Positions 2,659-64,000 of a stretch of DNA of 64,000 bases are shown here, one piece after another. A program made the translations under genes and the position numbers. Below the pieces are notes generated by a model that worked only from the letters and a program-made list of their open reading frames with translations, did not search any database and was not told where the DNA came from. The number at the start of each line of letters is the position of its first letter. Position 1 is the stretch's first letter. The DNA is from a virus (Duplodnaviria > Heunggongvirae > Uroviricota > Caudoviricetes), in IMG/VR virus record IMGVR_UViG_2690316068_000002; one strand, 5' to 3'.

Positions 2659-2958
2659 TATGTTGAAGCTATATATTTTTGAACTCTATCTCTTAAAAAA
2701 GATGTTAATAAGATGCTAACTATTGAAAGGCATAAATATATACAATTCCAACAAACGTTATTTTTAACAAATTTTTTCTCTCTGTTGACTTTTGCGAAAG
2801 CCTTGTCTGGCCTAAATTGCGCGGAAGCTACTTTTTCCTTCCTGAGTTATCCACAGAGTTATGCACTTGCATGCATAACCTATACACACTATCTTAATTC
2901 GCAAGACACTGATGTTGCGGTATTGAAGGTTCATTGGGTTAAAAATAGACATTAAAAA

Positions 2959-2984
2959 GCCCAGTTGACTAGGCTGGGCTTTTT
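2959..2984 (+). terminator. Rho-independent terminator-like hairpin
   Basis: gcccag-N-ctgggc stem followed by TTTTT; A-run on the other side. Confidence 0.45.
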
Positions 2985-3284
2985 AAAAGGAAACAGAGTT
3001 TGCGGCTCTGTTCCTGAGCCATAAGTATCTGGCGACTGAATTAAGATTAACCGAATGTACTGGATTCATCAAGAAACGTTGAGTGGTCATACCAGGTAAT
3101 AATGACCATTTACTAAACATCGTTGTTCTCAAAGAAGATTTAAGTCCAGGTTTTTGGTGACTCTAAAACCTTACCTTAACTCGAAATCGTGCCGTAAGTA
3201 TCTGGCGACTACAGATATTGCAACTGCAAAGGCAAGCCCAAAGGTATTTGCAGCTAGGCGCGATAAAACTAAGTGAGGCCTGTT

Positions 3285-3368
3285 ATGGTTAACTTACTGT
3301 TCAAAATCGTGCCGCCGATGTTCGCGATTATCAAAGCGATCATTGAGTACGTAAACCAGCGTCCATAA
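3285..3368 (+). CDS. Small hydrophobic peptide (27 aa), candidate membrane peptide
   Basis: ATG preceded by GAGG Shine-Dalgarno at about 6 nt; MVNLLFKIVPPMFAIIKAIIEYVNQRP; followed by a strong terminator hairpin. Below ORF-track size cutoff. Confidence 0.25.
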   Translation: MVNLLFKIVPPMFAIIKAIIEYVNQRP

Positions 3369-3381
3369 CGCTAGTTGCTAC

Positions 3382-3410
3382 AGGCCCCATCAAGAGCATG
3401 GGGCCTCTTT
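3382..3410 (+). terminator. Rho-independent terminator
   Basis: aggcccca/tggggcct 8-bp stem followed by CTTTAT. Confidence 0.5.
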
Positions 3411-3423
3411 ATCGTACTATTGC

Positions 3424-4050
3424 TTATTTTTTACGGACTGAGTTGTTCACTGCTCTGGCAATCTTCTCCCGCAATTGCTGCGTTCCGTGGTACTGAACCG
3501 CAATATCTCTCAACTCGTTCACCAGTTCTCGAATCTGGTGATCTTTAAGCTCATTATTTGGGTGATTGGTAACAACTCTGGTTAATTCACCCTTGTCTTT
3601 TGCTCTTACGTATGCAGCTCTTGTGCATTCGACCCATGTATTACCGCCTACATTAACTTCGTAGATTAGGCTGGACTTATCTGTCAATTCGGAACAAATA
3701 CGGGCCGTGGTCTGGCAACTAGAGCATTCGCAGTTATCGCGGAAACCGTGATCTACCGGTCGAGAAAGAGGTTTAACTTTTTCATCCAACTTCATCACAG
3801 CATCGTGATAAGCGTTCCAGCCGTCATCTTTACCAAGTTGATAAATCTCTGAAGGCTCCATGTAGTCTATATCGCAACCTTCTTCATCCGATCTATCTGG
3901 TCGCTTCCCTGGTAATCGCTCATAAAAACAATTTCTGTCTCGACGTTCGGCTCTCAGTGCTAACGCAAGAAGTTGCTCAAGCGAGGTATTTGCACCAGCA
4001 ATAATTTCATTGAGAATATCTTCTGTGAGATCTTTCGCTACCGTGCTCAT
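3424..4050 (-). CDS. Hypothetical protein (Cys-rich)
   Basis: 208-aa ORF; first of a tightly packed, overlapping minus-strand gene array. Confidence 0.5.
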   Translation of the reverse strand: MSTVAKDLTEDILNEIIAGANTSLEQLLALALRAERRDRNCFYERLPGKRPDRSDEEGCDIDYMEPSEIYQLGKDDGWNAYHDAVMKLDEKVKPLSRPVDHGFRDNCECSSCQTTARICSELTDKSSLIYEVNVGGNTWVECTRAAYVRAKDKGELTRVVTNHPNNELKDHQIRELVNELRDIAVQYHGTQQLREKIARAVNNSVRKK

Positions 4051-4430
4051 TTATCTCTCTCAGTATGTTGCGATGGCGTAAATTTGACGACATCAAATAT
4101 TTTGGATGGCATCAACTTTATCCGCGAGCTTAGTTCGGCTCTTCTCTGTAATGCGGTTAATAATGTTTTCGTTCTGACGCCTTCGTGTATCCTCATCCCT
4201 GGCACAAGAACTACATCGCAGGGGAGATGCTCAGGTGACAAATCATTTTGGGCATCGCTAATCAGTCGTGTAATCTCTCTTTCAAGCCGACCGCCTAGCT
4301 CTGTTTTAGTGCAATGTTCTGACCAATCGCCAGCCTCAAGCAGCGCGAGAATGCTTAAAATATCGTCCAATAGATCAGTGGTATTATCGACTTCCTTCTG
4401 AAACTCACCGGCTACTGATTTATGCATCAT
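4047..4430 (-). CDS. Hypothetical protein
   Basis: 127-aa ORF; 4-nt overlap with the downstream gene. Confidence 0.5.
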   Translation of the reverse strand: MMHKSVAGEFQKEVDNTTDLLDDILSILALLEAGDWSEHCTKTELGGRLEREITRLISDAQNDLSPEHLPCDVVLVPGMRIHEGVRTKTLLTALQRRAELSSRIKLMPSKIFDVVKFTPSQHTERDK

Positions 4431-5080
4431 TCGTCATCCTCATCCGAGTCATCCTCATCAAAGGATGAGAGTAGTGGGTTAGTCATTCGCCCTACTTGAG
4501 TGGCGTAGCCACGCCGACAGAGATTGCGCAGCACACTGTATATTTCGAACATCTCGGTTCGTTCATCGCCAACATCAAGCTCAGATGCTATAGCGTGGCA
4601 TTCAGTCGCGAGAGCCGATATTTTCTGAAATAACTCTGCATTATTCACTGTTCGACTCCTGCGGCGTTCTGGTAGTGGCATCCAGTGTGTGACATTGCTA
4701 ATCAGACCATATTCATTAGTTTGAGGATGGTTGCCGTTATCGTCTCCGTATTTAAGACTCTCCATAAAGCCATAATGCCTATCACCATTAACGCTCACAA
4801 AGCCGTAATAAGCAGGTATAACGCCGATCTCACACGTAACCAGTAAAGGAAAACTAGTTCTCCAATTTAGCTCGCCAATTACAGGCATTCGCTCACTACA
4901 GCTTATCCAACCATCCTTAGATGCGGCTGTATTGGCATAGGCCTTACGGTGCTTCTGTAGCTCTGCTGCAATCGCTCTCACGACTTCAACTGGTGCCCTT
5001 GCAGCAAACTCAATGTTGGTGATCAGCTCATTAAGATATTTCTCGCTTGGGTAGCATTTCTTATTGTTAACGGTGGTCAT
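4427..5080 (-). CDS. Hypothetical phage protein, DUF551-like
   Basis: 217 aa; ...THWMPLPE motif reminiscent of DUF551; acidic C-terminal tail. Confidence 0.45.
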   Translation of the reverse strand: MTTVNNKKCYPSEKYLNELITNIEFAARAPVEVVRAIAAELQKHRKAYANTAASKDGWISCSERMPVIGELNWRTSFPLLVTCEIGVIPAYYGFVSVNGDRHYGFMESLKYGDDNGNHPQTNEYGLISNVTHWMPLPERRRSRTVNNAELFQKISALATECHAIASELDVGDERTEMFEIYSVLRNLCRRGYATQVGRMTNPLLSSFDEDDSDEDDE

Positions 5081-5265
5081 TAGGCAGCTCTCTCAACAAC
5101 AAGCAATTCGTCGTAGTCATAATCAGTTTCGGAACCATCCGTACCGAACAGAGTCACTTTGTCATTTTCCATCCAAAAAGATTTAACCGCACATTGTTGA
5201 CCTTTAGATGTTATGAGCACATCACCAGGGATTACGTCTTCAGCGCGAACCTCTAGTGTTCTCAT
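5080..5265 (-). CDS. Hypothetical small protein
   Basis: 61-aa ORF, coupled to neighbours. Confidence 0.4.
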   Translation of the reverse strand: MRTLEVRAEDVIPGDVLITSKGQQCAVKSFWMENDKVTLFGTDGSETDYDYDELLVVERAA

Positions 5266-5792
5266 CGTGCTGCCCCCTCTTTGGTGAAAATGCCTGCTGC
5301 AATGCTGTTTATGATGCTGTCAGTGCATGGAGTAGAAAGCTGGGCATCTCCAGCAATTTTCATGACCTCAACATCCGCATATCGAATACCGAGGTGTATC
5401 AGACCGGCTATACCTGACTTAAGTCGAACATTTTCCATAAACAGATCTTTTTCCCGCTGTTTAGCGGCTTCCAACTCCATCGACAATTTTTCCAACTGCT
5501 CTTTATGCTTCTTGTATTCCTGATACGCGTGCCAAGACTGACCTTTGCGCACACTATCAGCGATATCAGCAACCTGCTCTGGTGTTAGCGTGGTCAGTGG
5601 CTGTGATGGAAAAATCATCACTTGCCCGGCATCCCAATCAAAACCCGCCTGAATTGACTGAACCTCAACTGATGGTGTTGAACCGATGCGACCAGGCGAA
5701 TGAACAACGATCGTTACATCCATATCGCGACGATGGCTGTGGTTGTTGGACAAAATACGATTCACCAACTCAGAAAATTTGGATAATTTCAT
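5262..5792 (-). CDS. Hypothetical protein
   Basis: ORF-track 5262..5921 trimmed to internal ATG at 5792, which overlaps the upstream stop (ATGA). Confidence 0.45.
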
Positions 5793-6112
5793 GCTGATCT
5801 CTCTTTCTCTCCCCGGATAATTCTGTTGCACACATCCACACACTCGTCGCAGATGAAAACGGCGTCCCCAGCAATTAACTTTTTGACGGCGTACTGGGAT
5901 TTGTTGCAGAAGCTGCAACAAAGTGTTCGCCTGACTGATAAGGATGGAGCGCCAGATGTCAGCCGCTCCATATCGTTCTTGCGACGCAATATCACACGGC
6001 TGAACTCAACCAGTTTCTCCGGGGATATCTCCTCCTCCGTAGCGAGCGTCTCTAGTCGTTCGAGTATGTTGAAGGCTTTTTCTTGGGTAATAGCAGAGTG
6101 CGATGTGGTCAT
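5789..6112 (-). CDS. ClpX-type zinc-finger domain protein
   Basis: 107 aa; C-terminus [35 protein letters not shown] matches the ClpX N-terminal C4 zinc-binding domain pattern. Confidence 0.55.
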
Positions 6113-6510
6113 TTTCTTTCACCTTCAATGTTCGTGGCGCTGGCAAGATTGTCCTTGCGAAGAAGAGCGGCTATGCGCTTACTTCCATCCGAGATAACGC
6201 CCTCGTAATACTCACGCTGCTCGTTGAGTTTTGATTTTGCCAACTCCAGTTGTTTTGTTAGTTCCGCAATACGGCAAACATCGTTGATACGCGTTTCCTC
6301 TAATGCGTTGATCTCATCCAGTAGTGCCAGCACGGTTTCTGGTCCGGCCAGAAATTTGAAGGCGTTGAGGGCATCAATATCAACACCGCTATCTTTAAGT
6401 TCCTGTTCGCATATCAGATCATCATCAACTGGCAACATTAACAGGCGTTCCATTGCCGGAATTGCACGCTCTGCCGCCTCACGCAGTGCCTGATAGTCAA
6501 TCTTGCTCAC
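6109..6510 (-). CDS. Hypothetical protein, Ead/Ea22-like
   Basis: 133 aa; N-terminus [14 protein letters not shown]... resembles lambdoid early-region Ea22-like proteins. Confidence 0.4.
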
Positions 6511-7007
6511 TGGATGACTCCTTTACGAAGCTGTTCAGCAATACTTACGCATATCTCTGCGCCTCTAATCAGCCCCGGAACGTTCTTGTTTGGCCCAACT
6601 TCACCATCAACAAAATCAATCATCGCGTTACGAGCCATATCCACGCCCTGCGCACGTACTTCAGCCAGAAAAGCATCGGTGGCTGGAGTCTCCGTTAATT
6701 CGCTAACCCAATTATCTCCGTGTTCCTCGGCACACATCGCATCGAATGCTCGCTCAGATTCTTTCAGGGCTGCATTCTCCGCCGCTAATGCGTCTCTCTG
6801 CGCTCGCAACTTCTCAATTTCGGCAGCCATGTAGTAACCAACCATAGCGAAAGTGGCGAAAGGGTAGTCAGAATCATCAGGAGATACGGAGGCCATTAGC
6901 AGACCATCGTGCATGTTCTGGCTTCCATCAGTGATGGATACCGCATAAGAATCGCTGGTTTCCCGTTTATACAATACGACGACCGGGTTCTTGATTTTCT
7001 CTCTCAT
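6507..7007 (-). CDS. Hypothetical protein
   Basis: 166-aa ORF, coupled. Confidence 0.45.
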   Translation of the reverse strand: MREKIKNPVVVLYKRETSDSYAVSITDGSQNMHDGLLMASVSPDDSDYPFATFAMVGYYMAAEIEKLRAQRDALAAENAALKESERAFDAMCAEEHGDNWVSELTETPATDAFLAEVRAQGVDMARNAMIDFVDGEVGPNKNVPGLIRGAEICVSIAEQLRKGVIQ

Positions 7008-7561
7008 TACGATGCCTCTAACTTATCTAACTCTTTCAGCCCTTCACGTACCGCGTTCACAATGCGTTCCAGATACTGGTATTTCGGGTTTGGTACCGTT
7101 GGCCAGTCGGCATACCACGGATCATCACCAAAGAGATTCAGCAGTTTGTTACCGACGCCGAAACAACAGCAGCTTTCTTTTACGTCATCGGTGTTTTCCG
7201 CCTCGTCCCACATTTCACGAGCCAGTACGGCGTCGATTTCTCTCTCTCTTCGTAACTTTATGATTTCTGACTTCACGAAAAGCAGATTTGCATCGTTGTC
7301 ATCGTCGACCGTGCTTCGCAGTTGAGAGTCGAAATAGCCGATTAGATACTCGTTGCTGACCCGCTTAATGAACGTCTGCACATCATCACCGCCCATAGCA
7401 AACCAAGCCGCAGTCCACGCTTTTCCGTAGCAGATGATGGTGATTCTTCCCTTACCAGGTTCGTAGTTTTCAATCATCACTCGAACCGGATCGAGGCGTT
7501 CCAGATCCGTCAGCACAAAGGAAAGAACATCTATTTTTTCGACCTTCATGCAGCCTCCCAC
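7007..7561 (-). CDS. Hypothetical protein
   Basis: 184-aa ORF. Confidence 0.45.
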   Translation of the reverse strand: MGGCMKVEKIDVLSFVLTDLERLDPVRVMIENYEPGKGRITIICYGKAWTAAWFAMGGDDVQTFIKRVSNEYLIGYFDSQLRSTVDDDNDANLLFVKSEIIKLRREREIDAVLAREMWDEAENTDDVKESCCCFGVGNKLLNLFGDDPWYADWPTVPNPKYQYLERIVNAVREGLKELDKLEAS

Positions 7562-8187
7562 GCGCTCCAGATCAGCGATTTGTGTTTTTCATAACGTTTG
7601 ATGTGTACCGGTTTCAGAAGCGCAATACCTTCAGTGACTTTCGCCATTGCGCTTAATAGCAACGGGTGTTCTATACCTATCCTCTCCATGTACTCGACAA
7701 CATCAGCGTTGGCACCAATCTCTTTGCCGTGAAAGAGTACGTCCAGCATCAGTTCTTTCTCTGCGAGGTAGACAGCTGAAAACTCGGGATCGCGACTCAC
7801 GATAGAAGAGGTATTGTCGAGCAGGTCAGCCAGCTTGATCATGCGCGTCTGCATGTCGAGATTTTGCTCCAGCTCCCGGACATTGATGATGAAACGCTGT
7901 ATTCGATTGCCGTCTTCTGGCCTTGCAATGTTGGTCAGAGCCTGAACCATTTCAGCTACGCGCTCACCGAAGTGATCACGAACCATCTCTATGGTTACAT
8001 GGGTGTCTTCGACCACATCATGCAGAAGCGCCGCGATTTGCATCTCCACGGTTCCGTCATGCAATGCAACAATCTCTCGGACAGCAACCGGGTGGTTGAT
8101 GTAGTCTTCGCCGGTATATTTTCTTTTCTGACCAACGCCACCATGAGCGCCAGCGGCGAACATATGAGCTTCGGAAATACTAGACAT
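7546..8187 (-). CDS. HD-domain phosphohydrolase, SpoT/Mesh1-like (p)ppGpp hydrolase family
   Basis: 213 aa; HPVAV...AALLHDVVEDT HD motif aligns with the SpoT hydrolase domain. Confidence 0.6.
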   Translation of the reverse strand: MSSISEAHMFAAGAHGGVGQKRKYTGEDYINHPVAVREIVALHDGTVEMQIAALLHDVVEDTHVTIEMVRDHFGERVAEMVQALTNIARPEDGNRIQRFIINVRELEQNLDMQTRMIKLADLLDNTSSIVSRDPEFSAVYLAEKELMLDVLFHGKEIGANADVVEYMERIGIEHPLLLSAMAKVTEGIALLKPVHIKRYEKHKSLIWSAWEAA

Positions 8188-8255
8188 TCTTAACTCCGTT
8201 GTTTTCTAGTTGTGGTTATTTTCACAAATAAGAAAAGGTAGAAAACAATTTATTT

Positions 8256-8280
8256 AAGGCCACAACTTATGGCCTTTATT
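8256..8280. terminator. Terminator-like hairpin
   Basis: aaggcc-N-ggcctt stem with T-rich 3' flank on the plus strand. Confidence 0.3.
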
Positions 8281-8306
8281 TATTCATGCCGAAGGATTTG
8301 TAGCGT

Positions 8307-8687
8307 CTAATTGCCGGATAAAATGGGGTGAGGTGCTTGCCAGTAGGCTCCACCGGTCCATGTGAACCCCATGCGAATAAGAGTGTTTATTGCGGCTTTG
8401 GTAGACTCCGATTCGACACTGGCTTTTCGAAACTCTTGAACCTCTTTCGCCAACTTGTATGTAATTGTGCAGGGGACGATTGCAGCCCAGCCTTTCTCAT
8501 GACTGTTAATGACCATCTGGATGTGACCATCCAGAATAGGTTGATTAGGCATGTTATTGAAAATGTCTGCCTGTTTTTGAATGTGAAGAAAAAGCCTTGC
8601 CAGCTCCATTTGCTCACTACGAGACAAGGGATTATCAAGAGGGCTTTTTGCAAAAGCGGCTATACGCTGTGCGTCAATGCCAAACAT
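8307..8687 (-). CDS. Hypothetical protein
   Basis: 126-aa ORF. Confidence 0.45.
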   Translation of the reverse strand: MFGIDAQRIAAFAKSPLDNPLSRSEQMELARLFLHIQKQADIFNNMPNQPILDGHIQMVINSHEKGWAAIVPCTITYKLAKEVQEFRKASVESESTKAAINTLIRMGFTWTGGAYWQAPHPILSGN

Positions 8688-9391
8688 CAGCGCACCTCAC
8701 CATCTTTATGGCTGGAGTTAACTTCCGCCATTAAATGTCTGACGTAATCGACAAGAGAGCCACCTGGTGGAATCTGGCATTCCTCAACTAACTGGAAGTA
8801 GATATCCGCTGCATTACGTGTATTGCTACCCGCACATATTCTTTCTTCCCGAAGTGCATGAAGCTCGTTGATCAAACGGTCACACTCTCCGTTACGCTGA
8901 TCCACAACGGCCTCAAGCTCTGCGACGCGTTCACCTGGCGTCTTACCTTCTTTGCGTTGGATGGTAACGACGAAATCGCCAATTGCAGGGACGTTGTAAT
9001 CCAGCTCAAGGTAGTTTTTGGCACCGCTGCGGACGAACTCACCCGCGAACATGGTGGCGAACATCGCAGAGGCCACTTCGCCGTTGAAAAGTGACTCCAG
9101 ATCTAACGGAGTCCCGGCATCAAGAGCCTCTTTTGCTGTATCCATTGCATCCATGAACCGATCAAACTCATTGGCGCGCTTTTCCAGGTTTTTCCATTGC
9201 TCGCTCCAACGTTTGGCAACGAAGTCTATGAATGTTTTCGCGGATTCATCAAAATCCCCCTCAAACTTAACGATGCCTTTATCAATAATGATCTGGCCTA
9301 CCGCATCCTCTGCATAACCTTTCAATGTAAACTTGAAAGGAAAATCAGAATGGCCTGTGACGTTAAAATGCTCTAACTGGAGGTTGTTCAT
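8687..9391 (-). CDS. Hypothetical protein
   Basis: 234-aa ORF; stereotyped ribosome-binding context upstream. Confidence 0.5.
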   Translation of the reverse strand: MNNLQLEHFNVTGHSDFPFKFTLKGYAEDAVGQIIIDKGIVKFEGDFDESAKTFIDFVAKRWSEQWKNLEKRANEFDRFMDAMDTAKEALDAGTPLDLESLFNGEVASAMFATMFAGEFVRSGAKNYLELDYNVPAIGDFVVTIQRKEGKTPGERVAELEAVVDQRNGECDRLINELHALREERICAGSNTRNAADIYFQLVEECQIPPGGSLVDYVRHLMAEVNSSHKDGEVR

Positions 9392-9452
9392 GTGTTTTTC
9401 TCTTATCGTTTAGTAACTACATTCTTACACAAATTAGGTAAGTATTTACCTA

Positions 9453-11138
9453 TCATTTAACGCGTTTGAAAACGTATACGCTGACTGTGATCCCTGTGTC
9501 TTCAAACTCGTTGGTAAACGACTTCCCTCTGGCATAAACGTAATTATCCATCGTCATCCAGTCCAGTATTGGCGCAGTGCCCGGCAATACTGCTACAAGA
9601 CGCCCGCCGACTTTCAGATGCCCCAGCGCAGCCAGCGTGTGCTCTCTATGACGACCAAGCGAGTACGGCGGGTTCATAACGATTTTGTCGAACTGATAAC
9701 CTACGTTGTCCTCAGACCACTTTATGAAGTCGCAGCAAATCGTGTTCGTATACCCTTTTCCGCGCAGGATATCAGCGAAGAGAGGTGCGATTTCTATGCA
9801 GGTAACATCTTCCAGATCGGCGTTGATATAGGCCAGAAGATCCCCACGTCCGGCTTGAGGCTCCAGCAGCTTCTCACCAGACTTCAATTCAGTGGCTCTG
9901 GCAACGTACTCAGCAATCAAGCGTGGGGTAGGGTAGAACTGGTGTGATTTTGTATCCGGTATTAATCCGGTAGCCACAATCGTATTTAGCGTATGGCCGA
10001 TCTCATACGGGAACTGCCAGTGCTTTTTCTCCTGCACGCCGCCAATGAAGCTCAGTGTGCGCTCAAGCTCTTCCACCTGCGACTTCTGGAGAGCTGAATC
10101 AGAGAAGTACCATACGCCTTTGTCTTTGCTTAATCGCCCGTCACGAAGCGCAGTGCGAACCGGCACGGAGATCGTCTTCTGGATTAACCCGAACTGCTTT
10201 GGTGCCCGTGTTTTTGGCGCGGTGCGACATGGCGCGGGGATTGCAGCAGGCATACTGTAAGCCAGCACCTCATTCAACTTCCAGGCCACGTCAGGATGTA
10301 TTTCAAAGTGAACGTTGCCGTTCTTGAACATCTTCACGCGCATTAGATTTCCATCGACGTTCATCCAGTCACCGGTCTGGCAGTCGTTTGCCCGATACGC
10401 AGCTGATAGCACCTCAGCAGTGCGGTTGATGGTAATAAATTCTTTGTGCGCGAAGAAATGAAGCAAGACACGCAGATCGTCGATATAGTCCTCTTTGCGA
10501 TAGTTCACACTAACGCTGTCCCGCCAGAAATCAGAAATGCAGTCAGCGATTATCAGACGTTCGCTGAAACCGTTTGTCTTATTTGTCTTGTGCGCAGGAC
10601 TCAGCGCCTTAAACAAGCCATACACGCGCTCAGAGAGATATTTGTGCCTGTCATTCAGCAAATTAAGCATCGTGGGTATGACCGTTTCTGCTTTGAACTC
10701 CGGTACACCAACGAACTCTTTAACCTTCATCTGGTAGCCGGTTCTGTCAGTTTTGATGACTTCCTGTTTGCCCTCTATAAACTGCTCGCGCCACTCATCT
10801 CGACGGGAAGCTGGCATGATCAGCAAAACGTTAGTCATGTCCGTGACCTTCCTCCAGTACTCGGCCCAAATATTCTGTTTCACCCATTCCAGATCGACTT
10901 TATCCAACCAACCTCGATTTAAACGCGAGCGATCTTCATCTGGTCGATGGTTTAGTCTCAGCAGGCGATTAATCATGTTGTGGCGTTCGTCGCCATAAAC
11001 GAAGTCGTGTACCTGATACATGAAGGCGATCTCTTTCTCGCACTCGGCCACAATTTCGTGGATGACGTTCATTTCCTGCCGATAGTCGATAGCAGTGTTT
11101 GAGTTGGCATCGTCGATGATGGAAAGGGCTGTATTCAT
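9453..11138 (-). CDS. DNA methyltransferase (N6A/N4C class) with large N-terminal domain of unknown function
   Basis: 561 aa; C-terminal FYPTP...LEPQAGRG...VMNPPY motifs. Confidence 0.65.
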   Translation of the reverse strand: MNTALSIIDDANSNTAIDYRQEMNVIHEIVAECEKEIAFMYQVHDFVYGDERHNMINRLLRLNHRPDEDRSRLNRGWLDKVDLEWVKQNIWAEYWRKVTDMTNVLLIMPASRRDEWREQFIEGKQEVIKTDRTGYQMKVKEFVGVPEFKAETVIPTMLNLLNDRHKYLSERVYGLFKALSPAHKTNKTNGFSERLIIADCISDFWRDSVSVNYRKEDYIDDLRVLLHFFAHKEFITINRTAEVLSAAYRANDCQTGDWMNVDGNLMRVKMFKNGNVHFEIHPDVAWKLNEVLAYSMPAAIPAPCRTAPKTRAPKQFGLIQKTISVPVRTALRDGRLSKDKGVWYFSDSALQKSQVEELERTLSFIGGVQEKKHWQFPYEIGHTLNTIVATGLIPDTKSHQFYPTPRLIAEYVARATELKSGEKLLEPQAGRGDLLAYINADLEDVTCIEIAPLFADILRGKGYTNTICCDFIKWSEDNVGYQFDKIVMNPPYSLGRHREHTLAALGHLKVGGRLVAVLPGTAPILDWMTMDNYVYARGKSFTNEFEDTGITVSVYVFKRVK

Positions 11139-15940: not shown

Positions 15941-15999
15941 AGCCTGCTTCCGTATATTAATAATTAATATGTAGTTATTTATATATACAGAAGCAGGCT
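15941..15999. repeat. Palindromic element, copy 1 (17-bp arms, AT-rich loop)
   Basis: agcctgcttccgtatat ... atatacagaagcaggct; near-identical arms recur at about 63013-63069. Confidence 0.6.
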
Positions 16000-30967: not shown

Positions 30968-31471
30968 GTGAAACGCGTAATTATAGGGACGATGGCCATT
31001 GCTCTGATCGGATGCGTACCAAAACCACCTCAAGATGAAAAGTCAGCTGGCGGGTACGTTGATATTTACTCCACTTCAAGCGTAGCAATTGCCCAAGACA
31101 GAGCCGACAAATTGTGTGGAAGCCATGCCTATTATGTCTCTAACGACAATGATTTAACCAAAGTCATGGGTAGATACGCGCCTTCATTCCCAAAAATCAG
31201 GTTCAACTGTGATCTTGAAATGGCCGCTTATCTGGGCAGCAAAGAGGCAAAGGAGATCAAAATGAAACGCATAGAGGAAGCCTACAAGGAGATGTACAAG
31301 GCCCAATATGAGCTGAAAGAAGTGCGCCGTAAGAACGCTGATCCGAAGAAGCTGGAGTCTTACACAGAACGCGATCCGGACGGTACTATTCGCAGCTACA
31401 GCTTCTTGAATGGCAAGTCGTGCGAATCAATCGTGTACCCAGACGGCACGGGCAAAACGACTTGTGATTAA
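30968..31471 (+). CDS. Lipoprotein (plus-strand moron)
   Basis: 167 aa; GTG start after AGGAG; signal peptide with lipobox LIGC; terminator follows. Confidence 0.6.
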   Translation: MKRVIIGTMAIALIGCVPKPPQDEKSAGGYVDIYSTSSVAIAQDRADKLCGSHAYYVSNDNDLTKVMGRYAPSFPKIRFNCDLEMAAYLGSKEAKEIKMKRIEEAYKEMYKAQYELKEVRRKNADPKKLESYTERDPDGTIRSYSFLNGKSCESIVYPDGTGKTTCD

Positions 31472-31480
31472 TTCTTCAGG

Positions 31481-31509
31481 AGCACCTCGTATGGGGTGCT
31501 TTTTATTTT
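31481..31509 (+). terminator. Rho-independent terminator
   Basis: agcacc-N-ggtgct stem followed by TTTTATTTT. Confidence 0.6.
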
Positions 31510-31942
31510 GGGTCGCGAAACAGCATGTCGGCCATTTGCGAGGATTTGACGTAGCACTTTGCCATCATCGGCTGACTAGGGTTTGATGCGATCATGTCGG
31601 ACACCAGCATTGACCCATAGCCTTTTCCGCGAAGCTCTTTGACAATACTGACGGCACGGAGTTCAAGTCAAGGTGCGCCAGTCGGATCGAGTGCGGCACA
31701 GAACCAGATTAGTCCTACTTTTTGTCATCAGAACGATGCAGCAGGATGTAGATAAAATGCCCGGAGTATTGGCCCCGCTCGTTCGTCTTGATTGCCAGTC
31801 TGGTCTGCTGCTCAAAGGTTTTACCCCCCCTTTGATGTGAGGATCTCTTCGTAGAAGTGACCTTTGCGTGCGCCGTCCTCGAACTCAGCCATGATAAAAG
31901 GCATGTCTGTCACAGTTGCTGCCCTTGAATAAAATTCACTCA
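31505..31942 (-). pseudogene. Disrupted GNAT-like acetyltransferase remnant with poly-C tract
   Basis: ATG at about 31942; frame breaks at a C7 homopolymer (about 31824-31830); downstream fragment carries LRGKGYG motif in another frame. Confidence 0.35.
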
Positions 31943-32018
31943 TGTATTAATCCTAAAAGCCCTCAGTGTCTTTCTAATGCACCATATTTTATGCCTCGGT
32001 TAAACCCTGAGATTACGT

Positions 32019-32663
32019 TTAAAACGTCTCAGTGGGCTTTTTACGCGCTGCGTTTATGCTTATGACGCCAGCTTTTGGACGTGGGTCAACAAGGTTAAGC
32101 TCTTCTTCACTGTGGTATTCGAGGTCGAACTCACGTTTTACATGTCTGATGTAGATTGCGGTGAGCAGGCTATCTTTGGTCAGAAAGTGTCCGTAGGATT
32201 TGCGGATCACTTCTTCTACCTTCTCGATTTTCTCACCACCCATACAGAGATGATTAAACCGGCTGTGTTTCCGCAACATTTCGTCTACTGGGCCTGAGTA
32301 AACCTTGTCTACTTTCCCAAAACGGATGATTTTCCCTGTGTCTGCGGATACGAGGCAAATCAGCTTGTCTGGTGATAAACGATCTCGCCACGTCACACCT
32401 GAACGGAGTGTGTTGAAGTAGGGAGCATCCAATCCGATGATCGGTTTACGAAATGCGAGTAATGGAACGTACCTGATGCAACTGTTTAAATGAAAATTCA
32501 CACCAGCCTTATCAAGTTTAATTCTGGTTTCGTAGATCGGGCACTTCGCCGCTATACCGCAGATGTCACAAAGCAACTTCTGCTTATTCAGGTTGGAATT
32601 CGATTCGATAGTGTAGGAGCCGTCTTCAAGACGACGAACCCAGCGCGTGCGTTTTAGATCCAT
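32019..32663 (-). CDS. Hypothetical protein
   Basis: 214-aa ORF divergent from the rep gene. Confidence 0.5.
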   Translation of the reverse strand: MDLKRTRWVRRLEDGSYTIESNSNLNKQKLLCDICGIAAKCPIYETRIKLDKAGVNFHLNSCIRYVPLLAFRKPIIGLDAPYFNTLRSGVTWRDRLSPDKLICLVSADTGKIIRFGKVDKVYSGPVDEMLRKHSRFNHLCMGGEKIEKVEEVIRKSYGHFLTKDSLLTAIYIRHVKREFDLEYHSEEELNLVDPRPKAGVISINAARKKPTETF

Positions 32664-58652: not shown

Positions 58653-59435
58653 TTACCAACTTCCCCAGCTAACCATCTTGCGCTGATTGCTTTCTAAGCG
58701 ATAGGGGACAAGAAGCTCTGTGACATGATTGGTGGCGTATGATTTAGCCTCTTGCTCTATCATCGGTAATTCGTTAGCAATCCTGACCATCTTCCCAGCA
58801 AATTCCGCCATTACGCCATCACATGCCTTCCCAGCATCAATAACGATATGCACCAGATCCAACTGGCTTTTGCACATGTCGCAAAGAGACGCATACTCAC
58901 TCTCTCTGATTACATTTACGGCATCATTAGCCCCTTTATTAAGCAAGACTTCCAACAGGTTTGTCGGGGTAACGAAATCGGCTTTAAGTGACAATGTTCT
59001 CTCACCTTTTATCGACCGTAAGTACTCTTCGTAGTTTTGCTTGTCTTCCAGCAAAACTAAGCTATGCATAGTTAGAAGTGATTCCTGAATAGCCTCTTCA
59101 ATAATACTGTCGTTTGGCGCACAAAAAACGGTATTTGTGTAGATCACTTTGCCATCCATCCATGCACCAACCTGCACTTTAAGACTGAGCGGGTTTTCTT
59201 TGCTAATAAAAACAACTAATGCAGAACGCCGTGCACAAGAAGGTTCACCCCATACGTGTAACTCAACTTTCAGATAAGGTAGCCCTGGTAGCGGGATCTC
59301 AACCAAACGAGTGGCGATATGATCCATTGCTGTTTTTACCGCTTTTTCAATGATGTCTAGTCGATTGCTCTCGCTGATTTCTAAACCAGTTTTATCAATG
59401 ATGTCGCAGGCTAATTTCTGAATTTCGTCTTTCAT
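58653..59435 (-). CDS. Hypothetical protein
   Basis: 260-aa ORF. Confidence 0.5.
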   Translation of the reverse strand: MKDEIQKLACDIIDKTGLEISESNRLDIIEKAVKTAMDHIATRLVEIPLPGLPYLKVELHVWGEPSCARRSALVVFISKENPLSLKVQVGAWMDGKVIYTNTVFCAPNDSIIEEAIQESLLTMHSLVLLEDKQNYEEYLRSIKGERTLSLKADFVTPTNLLEVLLNKGANDAVNVIRESEYASLCDMCKSQLDLVHIVIDAGKACDGVMAEFAGKMVRIANELPMIEQEAKSYATNHVTELLVPYRLESNQRKMVSWGSW

Positions 59436-59510
59436 ACCAACTCCTAGCTAACAGATGAAAGTATTCTCACAGAAAGATAAGTAATCATCTACTTATTTTA
59501 AAGGTGATTG

Positions 59511-60692
59511 TTATGATAGAGCCTTAATGCCCAAAACCTTGCTTTGCAACTCCAACTGTTTGGTATACGGTTTTGCCCGATAATAGGCTTTGATAATTTG
59601 TTCTGGCGTTGCACCGCCCGGGTCGAGTCCTTCCTCACCCAAACACGCAACTTTGACATTAAGACCGATACTGGTCAGTCGCCTGGCTGCGGCCATAGTG
59701 TTGCGTATAGCTTGCTTTTCACTATCCCACATCATGATCACATTACGTAACCCACGCGCCTTGAGCGTCAGGAACGCGCCTAACTGATCTTCTGCATCCT
59801 GAGTGGTGTTACCAGATAGATGCATCCCGAACGTTCCTATTGGTTCCACGTAATCACGTAATGTTTCTTCGTCAAAAATAGCTCGTTTAACCCCCATAAC
59901 ATCGAACGCCCCCTCACAGACAACTACAGTCTGTTTGCCGACTGCATTATGGCCGTTGTAGAGAAACTTACCTGAAGCTGGAAGTTGCATAGGAAAGAGG
60001 TAGCGGCGTTCTGCTGTACCGGTAATGTCTCGTCCCTGAAATGTCTTCATTACCCCATCCAGATCGTAAACCGGTATCAGTATTCGCATATCGAATATCT
60101 GTCCTTTAACCTGATCTGTATACGGATCTACATAAGCGTGCTTGCCTTCGACGCAGTATCGTAGGTCAAAATACTTTGCCATTTCAGGTGATATGTTTCG
60201 TTCAACCAGATAGTCTGGAAGACGGCCATCTATAGGAAGTTCGTAATGACGAGGGAGTGCAAGTGGTCCCTCTAACTCGACTGTGCTTGCAAGCACTATC
60301 TCTTCTTTCTTTGGTGCCCACCCCTGGGAAAGAAGGGCGTTCTGCACATATTCCTCGAACTGTCGTCGTGATTTGCCGCTGTAGTGCTTGAGGAAGACCA
60401 GCTTATTGAACTGAATCTCTTCGGGATGATCACCAGCAAAGCATTTGCCGACGCCACTGGTCAGATTGAAATATACCTTCCAGTTGGAGCTGCCGCATAC
60501 CGGACATTCCTTGATATTCACTTCACGACCGCGAGCACTCACGCCTCCACGTCGATAAACGATACCTTCAGTATCCAACCATTGTTCAAAATCTAATTCG
60601 GCAATTAGCTCTTTCAGCTCGCTCACGATAATTCCACTTTTAACAGGCAATATTGTGACCAACCTAAATGTTGATATAACATAAAGGCTCAT
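59511..60692 (-). CDS. DNA primase (zinc ribbon + TOPRIM)
   Basis: Start moved to ATG 60692 with conserved ribosome-binding context; CPVCGSS...C zinc ribbon; VVVCEGAFDVMG TOPRIM. Confidence 0.8.
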   Translation of the reverse strand: MSLYVISTFRLVTILPVKSGIIVSELKELIAELDFEQWLDTEGIVYRRGGVSARGREVNIKECPVCGSSNWKVYFNLTSGVGKCFAGDHPEEIQFNKLVFLKHYSGKSRRQFEEYVQNALLSQGWAPKKEEIVLASTVELEGPLALPRHYELPIDGRLPDYLVERNISPEMAKYFDLRYCVEGKHAYVDPYTDQVKGQIFDMRILIPVYDLDGVMKTFQGRDITGTAERRYLFPMQLPASGKFLYNGHNAVGKQTVVVCEGAFDVMGVKRAIFDEETLRDYVEPIGTFGMHLSGNTTQDAEDQLGAFLTLKARGLRNVIMMWDSEKQAIRNTMAAARRLTSIGLNVKVACLGEEGLDPGGATPEQIIKAYYRAKPYTKQLELQSKVLGIKALS

Positions 60693-60773
60693 GTGTTTTT
60701 CTTTTGTGGTTTGGCAAAAGAAAAGTTGTTTCACAAATGAATCAAGCGTGGAGGTGTTCTCCACGCTTATTTT

Positions 60774-62114
60774 TTAGGTAACGTCTAAGATTCGCTCAAT
60801 GAAACGCATTTGTTCGAGGTTTTGTTTAACGCGAATGCTGATCCCACCCTGCTGGTTACGTGAACCAGCAAAGTAGAGACGAGCCTCTCCTTTCGCTTCT
60901 TCTTCTTCGGTTTTGTTGATCGTTATTACCAGGTCAGCAATACGTACTTTTTCGATGTTATCGGCGGCGTGCATCATTGTGGCAACTTCTGACGCGCCAC
61001 CTTCACGGTTTGTCTGCGATGCCGTGATCCCAGCAACGTTATGCTTGTCATAAAGAGCACGTAAATCGGTGTAGATACTACGAATGTTGGCGCGATCATC
61101 ACGAAGGTCATAACTGGCACGCATCAAATCTGCGTAGTCGACAACAACCATGTCAGGCACCATGCCGTTGGCTTTCATGCTGTTAAGCATACGGTCCAGA
61201 TCTGCCGGTGACATACTTCCTGACGGACGCTCAACAACCCACAAACTACCAATCCCCTTAGAGGCTCCCAACTCTGCCAACTTACGATGAACTTCATCGC
61301 GCCGTTCCACCAACTTGGACATTTCCGTCTCCGACAATCTTGCATCAAAACGGTCGGACAAAATGTTGGTGTGAACCTCCAGCGAGAGATACAGAACATT
61401 GTAGCCAGCAAGCGTTGCGTTTATGGAAAACTCACCCATTGCGGTCGATTTACCGGATTTAGCGAACCCCATGAAGAGCACCATTTCACGCTTCGCCCAG
61501 CCTTTTTGGTACAGCAACCTATCGAGCAGAGGGAGTCCAGTTGTAATGCTGTTTGGCACATACTCCTCTGAGGCCTCATATTCACGCGCTTTCAGTCGCT
61601 CACTTGCTGAGGTGTAGTAGTCATAGATTCCGGTTGCTTCGTTCGAGCCTATCTGCTGAACCTTGGCCATGATTGCCATCGCCCCCTGAAAGTCGCCCTT
61701 CTCTTTCAGTTCAGCAGCCTTAATCAGAGCATCATCAAACGCTACGCTTTTTGCGAAGGTTGATACCTGGTCAACCATGTACGAGGTATCGGACAATTTT
61801 TCTGCAAGGATGCGCTTAAACGCAGCAACAACATCGGCGAATAGTTCCTCACGGATAGTCTTATCGCGTTTCGCACGCTTAAGCATATCCAGAATTGCAG
61901 ATGAAGAGGGCGCGCTCTTGTACATACGGTAATAGCCCGAAACCATATTAACCAATATGGCATTGGCCGCATTGGCAAATTGGTTAGGCACAACCAGATC
62001 TCCCGCACGAGTAAGAAACTCGTGATCACGACAAAAATATGCCGTCAGTCTGTTCTGGAAATCTTCATCAAACTCTTCGGACAGCCCGCGTCCTGTATGG
62101 CAAAGTTCGGTCAT
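60774..62114 (-). CDS. DnaB-like replicative helicase
   Basis: 446 aa; Walker A GFAKSGKS, Walker B VVVDY, ASQTNREG H3 motif. Confidence 0.85.
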   Translation of the reverse strand: MTELCHTGRGLSEEFDEDFQNRLTAYFCRDHEFLTRAGDLVVPNQFANAANAILVNMVSGYYRMYKSAPSSSAILDMLKRAKRDKTIREELFADVVAAFKRILAEKLSDTSYMVDQVSTFAKSVAFDDALIKAAELKEKGDFQGAMAIMAKVQQIGSNEATGIYDYYTSASERLKAREYEASEEYVPNSITTGLPLLDRLLYQKGWAKREMVLFMGFAKSGKSTAMGEFSINATLAGYNVLYLSLEVHTNILSDRFDARLSETEMSKLVERRDEVHRKLAELGASKGIGSLWVVERPSGSMSPADLDRMLNSMKANGMVPDMVVVDYADLMRASYDLRDDRANIRSIYTDLRALYDKHNVAGITASQTNREGGASEVATMMHAADNIEKVRIADLVITINKTEEEEAKGEARLYFAGSRNQQGGISIRVKQNLEQMRFIERILDVT

Positions 62115-62157
62115 GTGCTTTCCTTTGTTTTTTAAACAAATTGTTTTCTAGTATTAG

Positions 62158-62907
62158 TTAATTAGATAGGGGATCAATAAACCGCCGTGCTTCTTCCAGT
62201 TCTTCTGGAAAGTGGGCGGAAATAAGGCGTTCTGGAACGATTTCCATTAGCCAGATAGCGGAGAAAATTGCGCGTATGCGCTTGCTGCGAGGGATGGTGC
62301 GCAAACGCTCCAGAATCCACTCAAAATAGCTTTCCTGAATCGGGTTGAACTGCATGTCTCCCATATGCTTAAAGCTAACCAGAGAGTCATCCAGACGGGT
62401 TGTTGCGCGTCTGGCTAATTTCTCTTCAAATATCTCAATCAGTTCTGGCTGCCACAAATGCTGTGGGCGCGGCAGCTTGTCCCACAGCCGTCGTGCAGCT
62501 GCGGAAAGAACGGTGGAGATAAAGTAGTCGTATGAGCAGCAATAGCGATCCGCAAACTGGCGTGCTTTCCATAGCGACGTTTTATTGGCAGTCGACAACT
62601 CCTGATAAGGCAGGCGTTTTAACCCGGTGGTGAACGGAGCTGTTTCAAAGTGTTCGCGACCGTGCGTCAGCATGATATTTGAGTACTGACGTTTGTATGC
62701 CTCCGTAAAAAGACAGGTGGCCATGAGAGGATGCATGTCGCGGTAATCAAACCACTTCGTCTCGAAGAGTTCAGCCTCGTCTTTACAGCGCGACAAACCA
62801 ATGTTTTCAGCGACCCACTTGTCCATAACAGCGGTATTCCACTCTGTCATGAAGTCGTACTGGTCGTTGTCGATGGTATCGAAAAAGATTTGGCTCATGT
62901 GGCTCAC
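62158..62907 (-). CDS. Hypothetical protein
   Basis: 249-aa ORF with GTG start. Confidence 0.5.
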   Translation of the reverse strand: MSHMSQIFFDTIDNDQYDFMTEWNTAVMDKWVAENIGLSRCKDEAELFETKWFDYRDMHPLMATCLFTEAYKRQYSNIMLTHGREHFETAPFTTGLKRLPYQELSTANKTSLWKARQFADRYCCSYDYFISTVLSAAARRLWDKLPRPQHLWQPELIEIFEEKLARRATTRLDDSLVSFKHMGDMQFNPIQESYFEWILERLRTIPRSKRIRAIFSAIWLMEIVPERLISAHFPEELEEARRFIDPLSN

Positions 62908-63012
62908 CTGGTAGGTAGTTACTTACTTATCACAATGAGCGGATGATAGCGACTGGTGGCAGTTTTTGGAAGTGGAAACGGAAGGGACTTGTTCTGGTGG
63001 GTGTCTTTAAAA

Positions 63013-63069
63013 GACCTGCTTCTGTATATATATAAATACTAATTTACTTATTATATACAGAAGCAGGTC
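63013..63069. repeat. Palindromic element, copy 2 (18-bp perfect arms)
   Basis: gacctgcttctgtatata ... tatatacagaagcaggtc; related to copy at about 15941-15999. Confidence 0.6.
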
Positions 63070-63091
63070 ATAATTGTTGATACTACCAATA

Positions 63092-63847
63092 CTAGTATCC
63101 AAGAAAATCAGTATCTTTCTCTAATCTTATTTTTTCCAGCTTATACGATCCTGGAGGGCACTTCATTTTGTAGATTTCGATACCTGAATCAAATAGTTGA
63201 TGAACATAATTTTGAAGTTGACTGCTAGCCTTACAACCTATTGTTATTTCCTTAATTAAGGATTTATCAAATAATTTCACGCCACAATTCTCGGTTACGA
63301 TTCTAACCTCCTCTTCATATTCCCAGACATCGCTTTTATTTAGGCAAAGAGCCGCTGCAATCTCTTTATCTGAGTCGGTAAAAAAATTTACAACCGGAAC
63401 ATCAGAGGAATATTTGACCTCACCGCGAACAAAAAAACCATCATCAAACGCATTTATAAAACCATCATCAAATCCGATGCAAAAACCAGAGTGAGAATGC
63501 GCATAATGCGACCACATAAGATAATTATCTGGTCTTTTTGTCAAACAAATAACTCCCCGACACTGCAGAAAAGTTGTTCTAATCATATAGTTATCAAAAC
63601 TGCGACTATGTTCTGTTTGACTCAATAACCAGCGTTCAAATTCATCATTGTGATGATTAGGCCAAAGCTCAAAAAATCTTTTCTTAATGGCGTCTATATC
63701 AGCATCATAATCAAAATTAACTTTAAACTCGGCAGGATCGTTGAAATCATTCGGACGAGTTGCTCGAATTTTCCCATCTTCTAAGTAATACTTTAAATAC
63801 TTTATTGTGTCTTCCGGGACGCTACTTCCAACATATTTGTAAAGCAT
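63092..63847 (-). CDS. DUF2971-like protein (AT-rich accessory gene)
   Basis: Start moved to ATG 63847 (MLYKYVGS...); LYKY...FNDP.EF N-terminal pattern and MWSHYA..HSGFCIGF core resemble DUF2971 as recalled. Confidence 0.45.
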   Translation of the reverse strand: MLYKYVGSSVPEDTIKYLKYYLEDGKIRATRPNDFNDPAEFKVNFDYDADIDAIKKRFFELWPNHHNDEFERWLLSQTEHSRSFDNYMIRTTFLQCRGVICLTKRPDNYLMWSHYAHSHSGFCIGFDDGFINAFDDGFFVRGEVKYSSDVPVVNFFTDSDKEIAAALCLNKSDVWEYEEEVRIVTENCGVKLFDKSLIKEITIGCKASSQLQNYVHQLFDSGIEIYKMKCPPGSYKLEKIRLEKDTDFLGY

Positions 63848-63891
63848 AAATATACCTTTTAAGAGAAGGCGTCTAATCACGCCTTCTCTTA

Positions 63892-64000
63892 TCAACCTTT
63901 CTTCATCAACTCGCGTTTGATTTCATCGGTACGCATCGTTACGTCGGCAGCTGTGATCGCCTCGTTAAGTTTCACGATGTCCTCGATTTCCTGCGGTGAC
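63892..64000 (-). CDS. Hypothetical protein, C-terminal fragment (5' end beyond window)
   Basis: Open frame to window edge ending ...IKRELMKKG-stop. Confidence 0.35.
   Translation of the reverse strand, partial: SPQEIEDIVKLNEAITAADVTMRTDEIKRELMKKG

Follow-up and report, generated by a model that had tools for sequence, protein, structure and literature searches.

The subject of this study is a gene of the DUF2971 family near the end of a 64,000-nucleotide (nt) stretch of viral DNA, IMG/VR record IMGVR_UViG_2690316068_000002 (Caudoviricetes). The whole stretch is referred to below as the window and is, judged by its sequence, an SSU5-like phage-plasmid. The gene occupies a slot in which different genes, recognised defence families among them, replace one another in related elements, and we propose that it is probably anti-phage defence cargo. 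The features under discussion, with protein lengths in amino acids (aa) and GC for guanine-plus-cytosine content, are the following.

63092..63847, minus strand: DUF2971/PDC-S31 gene, 251 aa, the slot cargo, encoding a predicted ADP-ribosyltransferase-fold protein (Pfam, PADLOC and an AlphaFold2 model)
63070..63891, no strand assigned: AT-rich variable cassette, 35.3% GC, about 822 nt (breaks in homology to sister elements)
63860..63891, minus strand: cassette-borne GC-rich hairpin with 13-nt arms and a 6-nt loop (-21.9 kcal/mol, z -6.4)
63013..63069, minus strand: terminator-like backbone palindrome of 57 nt, with 18-nt arms (63013-63030 and 63052-63069) that are 100% complementary and 21 nt apart
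62158..62907 (RefSeq start 62898), minus strand: backbone gene of 246-249 aa, the first of the helicase-primase operon (phrog_2500, E 2.8e-113)
63892..64000, minus strand: 3' end of a 117-119-aa gene that follows parA, truncated at the window edge (phrog_5111; full gene in Cyrano and pLR-48_2)
15941..15999, minus strand: second copy of the palindrome, between an N6-adenine methyltransferase gene and an 84-aa gene

Several lines of evidence place the protein in the DUF2971 family. A first-pass annotation made from the letters alone had described an N-terminal MLYKY...FNDP signature as typical of the family. Among 53 aligned homologues, L2, Y3, K4 and Y5 are at least 90% conserved and F35, N36, D37 and P38 are invariant, in line with that description. 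The translation opens with MLYKY, and RefSeq gives the same start in plasmid pLR-48_2. The Cyrano record uses a longer TTG start (267 aa), which such strong conservation of residues 2-5 (LYKY) at homologue N-termini makes unlikely. The annotation had proposed a hidden Markov model search as a check on the family. The protein scores 42.2 bits against Pfam DUF2971 (PF11185), well above the gathering cut-off of 22 (E 2.2e-10), and the 53 homologues match as well. It had also proposed defence-system predictors, and PADLOC returns four matching PDC-S31 profiles. The best of these (PDLC04990, E 9.9e-41) aligns residues 1-239 with profile positions 8-255 of 259, a near full-length match to what is itself a computational candidate class. 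The single-gene architecture of PDC-S31 is also found here, as the cassette has no other credible open reading frame (ORF). A literature search found no published phenotype for PDC-S31. The protein also matches phrog_1762, and NCBIfam has no model for it. As the annotation had noticed, the gene is much poorer in GC (35.6%) than its neighbours, which lie at about 49% (49.5% in the 249-aa gene and 48.7% in the helicase gene; 45.9% in the whole window). The DUF2971 family is very large, with 36,203 clusters at 50% identity (profile matches, E up to 0.001). The closest 150 representatives are stand-alone proteins of 234-292 aa, with one 370-aa exception, and domain fusions among them gave no functional clue.

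An AlphaFold2 model built with the 53-sequence alignment has a predicted local distance difference test score (pLDDT) of 94.9 and a predicted template modelling score of 0.89; a single-sequence AlphaFold model (pLDDT 35) was discarded. The ADP-ribosyltransferase fold closest to the model is that of DarT, at 9-14% identity, and the model carries a large helical insert at residues 51-96, unlike DarT. The predicted fold is a DarT-like ADP-ribosyltransferase fold, with a modest resemblance. Foldseek searches with the model found no significant match in the PDB or among viral models, and a profile search of PDB sequences gave spurious haemagglutinin hits and no ADP-ribosyltransferase. Lenient Pfam scans of the protein and 52 homologues (E up to 5) revealed no recurrent second family, and so no sequence bridge to DarT or AbiGi. 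A published study assigned DUF2971 to the ADP-ribosyltransferase superfamily, close to DarT and AbiGi, and described a conserved tyrosine and an ExE motif (PMC12522546), and the same fold was reached independently for the DUF2971 protein Aristaios (PMC11381338). Our alignment shows no variation at W112-S113-H114-Y115, Y177-E178 and R182, and conservation of at least 90% at E180. The model puts E178 and E180 at the start of a beta strand (180-185), where motif III is expected. Y115 and E178/E180 agree with the published motif-II tyrosine and motif-III ExE of DUF2971.

The window region around the gene has close relatives. Over positions 60000-64000, identity is 98.7% to Escherichia phage Cyrano/pLF82 and about 81% to Salmonella phage SSU5. 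Cyrano, which the naming paper equates with pLF82 (PMC9928086), is 108,379 base pairs long, as is plasmid pLF82 of E. coli LF82, which encodes an identical DUF2971 protein. Plasmid pLR-48_2 is 99.98% identical to the window over 59158-64000 and differs elsewhere. Homology to the sister elements PhiR41_1, pRM9131-1 and pTLYA-2 ends at 63071-63077, and to SSU5, which has its own DUF2971 allele, at 63107. Homology to all four starts again at 63889-63894, where the small par-linked gene has its stop codon. These limits define a variable unit at approximately 63070-63891. The slot that holds it has the small gene after parA on one side and the replication operon on the other. To catalogue its content, loci were fetched by the conserved 249-aa protein, and both flanking genes were located in 84 of them. 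The flanks share 87-100% protein identity in all of these except one divergent metagenome contig (61-65%). The slot content in the 84 loci is as follows.

255-aa GIY-YIG protein matching PD-T4-3, on the opposite strand: 28 loci
357-aa protein alone, one copy disrupted: 13 loci
DUF2971 alone: 12 loci
KAP nucleoside triphosphatase (NTPase) matching PDC-S49: 6 loci
DUF2971 with two membrane proteins: 5 loci
Membrane-protein pairs: 5 loci
Empty, about 193 nt: 5 loci
DUF2971 with the unknown 357-aa protein: 4 loci
DUF2971 with PD-T7-5: 2 loci
PD-T7-5 alone (E 4.5e-139): 2 loci
Singletons: 2 loci

DUF2971 is found in 23 of the 84 slots, in at least six allele groups that are mutually 21-54% identical, one of them inverted. 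PD-T4-3 and PD-T7-5 are experimentally selected E. coli defence genes. The slot pattern is that of a defence hotspot, since a single site holds mutually exclusive cargo that includes recognised defence families. A survey of SSU5-group plasmids lists both PD-T4-3 and PD-T7-5, describes no slot and does not mention DUF2971. Published work already treats the DUF2971 family as a defence candidate, one relative having been validated, and hotspots of this sort are well documented in P2 and P4. We found no description in the literature of the SSU5-like slot itself, of its depth of DUF2971 allele turnover or of its unannotated occupants. The first-pass annotation had described the gene as a moron in an accessory or defence context, and the cassette, at 35% GC and absent or replaced in sister plasmids, behaves as one. 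It had also left the function blank; the PDC-S31 match, the DarT-like fold and the Pfam family shared with the validated Aristaios now narrow it.

Other occupants of the slot deserve attention. A protein of 351-374 aa is present in 17 of the 84 slots (L021, L077 and L084 in our locus numbering among others; in L027 the ORF runs opposite to the backbone strand). It has no Pfam or PADLOC match, and its position makes it a candidate for a new defence gene. Two related gene pairs for predicted membrane proteins replace one another in the slot and in some loci accompany DUF2971. One pair encodes proteins of 253-255 and 140-141 aa (L089, L006) and the other proteins of 214 and 136 aa (L062, L059 and SSU5, L003 6961-8005); neither has a match in the defence databases. 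In the empty slots (L029 and its relatives L013, L034 and L038), the stretch of about 27 nt before the palindrome resembles window positions 63070-63091 and SSU5 L003 at approximately 6075-6100. This likeness suggests that DUF2971 cassettes were inserted right after the stop codon, or that the empty sites are clean deletions of such cassettes.

The DUF2971 allele of the window is a minority one. Among 301 plasmid-database records that match the flanks, 26 carry it, and tblastn matches to the protein have identities of 95% or more or of less than 60%, with none between. Of 5426 complete E. coli genomes, 21 carry the cassette, in every case on a plasmid of 105-115 kb and in none on a chromosome. 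The ORF is at least 99.4% identical in the 20 uninterrupted E. coli carriers. In the remaining one (H193, NZ_JBQRBK010000004.1, 31005-32603) the cassette is split by IS1A, from which it follows that the DUF2971 gene can be lost without loss of the plasmid. More distant homologues elsewhere occupy positions typical of prophage morons. In P2-like prophages an E. coli homologue (36% identical) lies between the genes for tail-fibre assembly and the tail sheath, at the Z/fun moron site. A Shewanella homologue (44% identical) lies beside the CI-type repressor of a lambdoid prophage, and a Serratia homologue (50% identical) shares an integrase island with CbtA/CbeA and an anti-restriction gene.

On the minus strand, the genes are arranged in the order parA, the 117-119-aa gene, the DUF2971 gene, the palindrome, the 246-249-aa gene, a DnaB-like helicase gene, a primase gene, two unknown genes and an ATP-dependent ligase gene. 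The uncharacterised 249-aa gene and the truncated gene that the first-pass annotation had placed on either side are both there, the truncation being the window edge at 64000. The 249-aa protein is 87-100% identical across all of the 84 loci but one, whichever cassette is present, which argues that it is not a partner of the cargo. It has no match in Pfam, NCBIfam, PADLOC or PDB sequences. The 222-aa protein encoded upstream of the 117-119-aa gene is a ParA/MipZ-type ATPase, and the 117-119-aa gene is, from its position, a likely partition adaptor. The latter has no match in Pfam or PDB sequences, and its deposited label of 'RelE/ParE toxin' is unsupported in view of the missing Pfam hit.

The palindrome was described by the first-pass annotation as a repeated element with 18-bp arms that flanks and bounds the moron. 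The arms are exact and the element is repeated, in the window (15941-15999) and in pLR-48_2, with three matches to the arm sequence in the window where 0.02 are expected. The flanking, however, is on one side of the gene only, starting 22 nt past the DUF2971 stop codon, and the palindrome does not bound the moron. It is conserved backbone, found in 84 of 84 loci including the 5 empty ones, where it lies about 27 nt after the small gene's stop codon. A role as an inverted repeat or boundary of a mobile cassette was rejected on the grounds that the palindrome is kept in empty slots and lies inside the homology to sister plasmids. A third copy is present in pLR-48_2 (L093 30515-30573, approximately 62014-62072 in the record), before the packaging genes; 22 nt separate it from the end of the preceding gene and about 115 nt from the small gene ahead of the large terminase gene. 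Many relatives differ at this copy, but only by 230-500 nt of extra length, and it is not a cargo hotspot. The copy at 15.9 kb lies in uninterrupted backbone, and the palindrome family was not retained as a general marker of cargo hotspots.

Folded as minus-strand RNA, the palindrome reaches -35.4 kcal/mol (z -7.95) and is followed by UUUU. Among its 36 distinct versions, arm positions that depart from Watson-Crick pairing read as G.U on the sense strand in 42 cases and as A.C in two; two arm positions show the full series C-G, U.G, U-A; and 98.4% of arm cells pair, compared to 29-56% in slid controls. Formal covariation did not rise above shuffles, in arms that barely vary among related sequences. 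The strand asymmetry of G.U is the sole informative signal for a hairpin on the sense strand and is suggestive only. The U-run is short, and the loop and stem exceed the limits of the terminator scanner. The palindrome looks like a terminator-like hairpin that would close the par/cargo unit ahead of the replication operon; alternatively, it could serve in protein binding. The cassette-borne hairpin at 63860-63891 is unrelated to the palindrome. It begins directly after the upstream gene's stop codon, ends 12 nt short of the DUF2971 ATG, lacks a U-run on the sense strand, and may act as an attenuator or stabiliser. Unrelated GC-rich hairpins of their own follow the small gene's stop codon in 11 of 14 representatives of occupied cassettes.

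Other parts of the element vary too. Window positions 2661-10690 correspond to pLR-48_2 L100 6902-13695 in a second variable region. The window has about 8 kb of small phage-type genes there (DUF551, an HD-domain protein and a 561-aa DUF4942 protein), and pLR-48_2 has a type I restriction-modification operon (hsdM, hsdS, hsdR). Positions 1-2195 hold metG (methionyl-tRNA synthetase), entered from within, and a full apbC/mrp-type iron-sulfur carrier gene, a housekeeping-type pair on a phage-plasmid that adjoins an S24-peptidase (repressor-like) gene at 2233-2622. Beyond parA and just past the window end (Cyrano L001 9203-10037), a TacA-like antitoxin and a GNAT acetyltransferase toxin of the TacAT/KacAT type are encoded. 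At the same position PhiR41_1 and pTLYA-2 have two different genes (about 250 aa and 127-132 aa), and it looks like another cargo slot.

The DUF2971 gene is expressed in the plasmid state. RNA sequencing of the LF82 lysogen found CYRAN_30, which is this gene, 6-fold and the upstream CYRAN_29 9-fold above the prophage background, and both were listed as morons (PMC9928086). These data fit co-transcription from a par promoter. The 12 nt between the cassette hairpin and the ATG contain AAAGG and leave no room for a promoter of the gene's own at that place.

We propose that the gene is defence cargo of the single-gene abortive-infection type, encoding an ADP-ribosyltransferase-like enzyme as for Aristaios, and put the probability of this reading at about 0.6. 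The family, the fold, the tyrosine and ExE motifs, the cassette limits, the slot polymorphism and the backbone nature of the palindrome come from our own analysis; the lysogen expression and the Aristaios phenotype are taken from the papers cited. From these we infer enzymatic activity, a substrate or target, a trigger, self-restraint and defence by this protein. Low-level transcription in the lysogen would probably arise by read-through from the par genes across the cassette hairpin. The protein, by analogy with Aristaios, would stay idle until another phage infects. It might then use nicotinamide adenine dinucleotide (NAD+) to ADP-ribosylate a nucleic-acid or protein target. Phage gene expression would be shut down in a manner resembling abortive infection, and the host clone and the resident phage-plasmid would be protected.

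Aristaios is a single-gene DUF2971 abortive-infection system on the lactococcal plasmid pUCCL641 (PMC11381338). It blocks phage transcription and protein production (PMC11381338; PMC13064643; PMC12967558). The two proteins have in common the DUF2971 domain, an ADP-ribosyltransferase-like predicted fold and the lack of a partner gene. They differ in size and setting, Aristaios being a 316-aa protein of a Gram-positive conjugative or mobilisable plasmid and ours a 251-aa protein of an enterobacterial phage-plasmid. In the summary of a tblastn search of plasmids with our protein, the ten most frequent organisms do not include Lactococcus. DarT, the toxin of DarTG, is a thymidine ADP-ribosyltransferase acting on single-stranded DNA. 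The DUF2971 protein has no Pfam match to DarT, and no DarG macrodomain antitoxin adjoins its gene, the neighbours being backbone that is present whatever the cargo. It is at most DarT-like in its working and not a member of the DarT family. The slot resembles the defence hotspots of P2 and P4 (PMC13586616) as a fixed site between backbone genes with exclusive, swapped cargo of low GC, a mixture of validated and unknown systems and rare empty sites. The P2 slot between the tail-fibre assembly and sheath genes also holds a DUF2971 homologue. Unlike those hotspots, the slot described here belongs to an SSU5-like phage-plasmid and lies between the partition and replication modules. In the P4 hotspots, 6 of 8 tested loci of unknown function gave defence (PMC13586616).

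Several points weigh against the proposal. The usual motif-I His/Arg is replaced by Y-K-Y, and catalysis is only putative. There is no phenotype on record for this or any enterobacterial DUF2971 protein. PDC-S31 is a class of candidates, so that membership does not establish function, and the likeness to Aristaios rests on the Pfam family and the described fold. The cassette contains no antitoxin or immunity partner that could hold a toxic enzyme in check. A scan for consensus promoters and terminators gave nothing relevant near the gene and no promoter-like site.

Host takeover or counter-defence would also suit a phage-borne protein with an ADP-ribosyltransferase-like fold. The T4 enzymes Alt, ModA and ModB are ADP-ribosyltransferases and the model for host takeover. 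The DUF2971 protein might likewise modify host RNA polymerase or an immune protein and so aid the lytic growth or establishment of its own phage-plasmid, and the published survey reports anti-defence genes such as Rad on SSU5-group plasmids. However, the gene is dispensable and replaceable, as the empty slots and the IS1-interrupted copy indicate, and its slot-mates are recognised defence families rather than lytic-cycle genes. It is also transcribed in the lysogen (PMC9928086), and the sole tested member of the family is a defence protein. We consider host takeover or counter-defence unlikely. The same intact ORF, nearly invariant in its 20 uninterrupted carriers, argues against a neutral hitchhiker or a decaying gene without current function, as do the catalytic-type residues that are invariant across homologues of 26-59% identity and the transcription of the gene (PMC9928086). 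The lack of a known phenotype and the low frequency in E. coli would suit such a gene, which we nevertheless regard as unlikely.

The location in a maintenance region, beside parA and the TacA-like antitoxin/GNAT toxin genes just past the window, raises the question of whether the protein is an addiction toxin that stabilises the plasmid by post-segregational killing; DarT-type ADP-ribosyltransferases do act as toxins (PMC12522546). Yet the 822-nt cassette offers no second gene as a potential antitoxin, the close relatives stand alone, with the size range given above, and many sister plasmids are stable with an empty slot or with nucleases or NTPases in it. This makes addiction improbable. Approximately 18% of DUF2971 proteins are predicted to be secreted effectors (PMC12522546), and the best-studied carrier of the gene is the adherent-invasive strain LF82. 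A lysogenic-conversion effector directed at a eukaryotic host or competing bacteria, as proposed for some Legionella DUF2971 proteins, is nonetheless highly improbable here: the sequence has no obvious signal peptide or secretion-associated neighbour, the slot-mates are defence genes, and homologues occupy moron positions in prophages of many non-pathogens.

The defence proposal can be extended, in a form that we find doubtful as a whole and offer tentatively. DUF2971 might be a very large class of self-contained, DarT-like ADP-ribosyltransferases of nucleic acids, in which a single 250-aa protein does its own sensing and restraint and so needs no antitoxin. Each of the six or more alleles rotating through the slot might recognise different competing phages. 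With read-through from the partition operon and a dedicated terminator at its end, the slot would then be a purpose-built expression socket for interchangeable immunity genes, and its unannotated occupants (the 357-aa protein and the two membrane-protein pairs) would be new defence systems.

SSU5-like phage-plasmids are common in E. coli, Shigella, Salmonella, Klebsiella and Enterobacter, clinical lineages included. A swappable immunity slot in these elements would help to explain and predict phage sensitivity, which is relevant to phage therapy. Within the very large DUF2971 family, a phenotype is on record for only one member, and a substrate or trigger for none. The locus could serve as a handy enterobacterial model for the family, with a short single gene, natural empty and alternative alleles in near-identical plasmids and a characterised host in LF82/Cyrano. 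Beyond DUF2971, the slot yields a short list of candidate defence genes.

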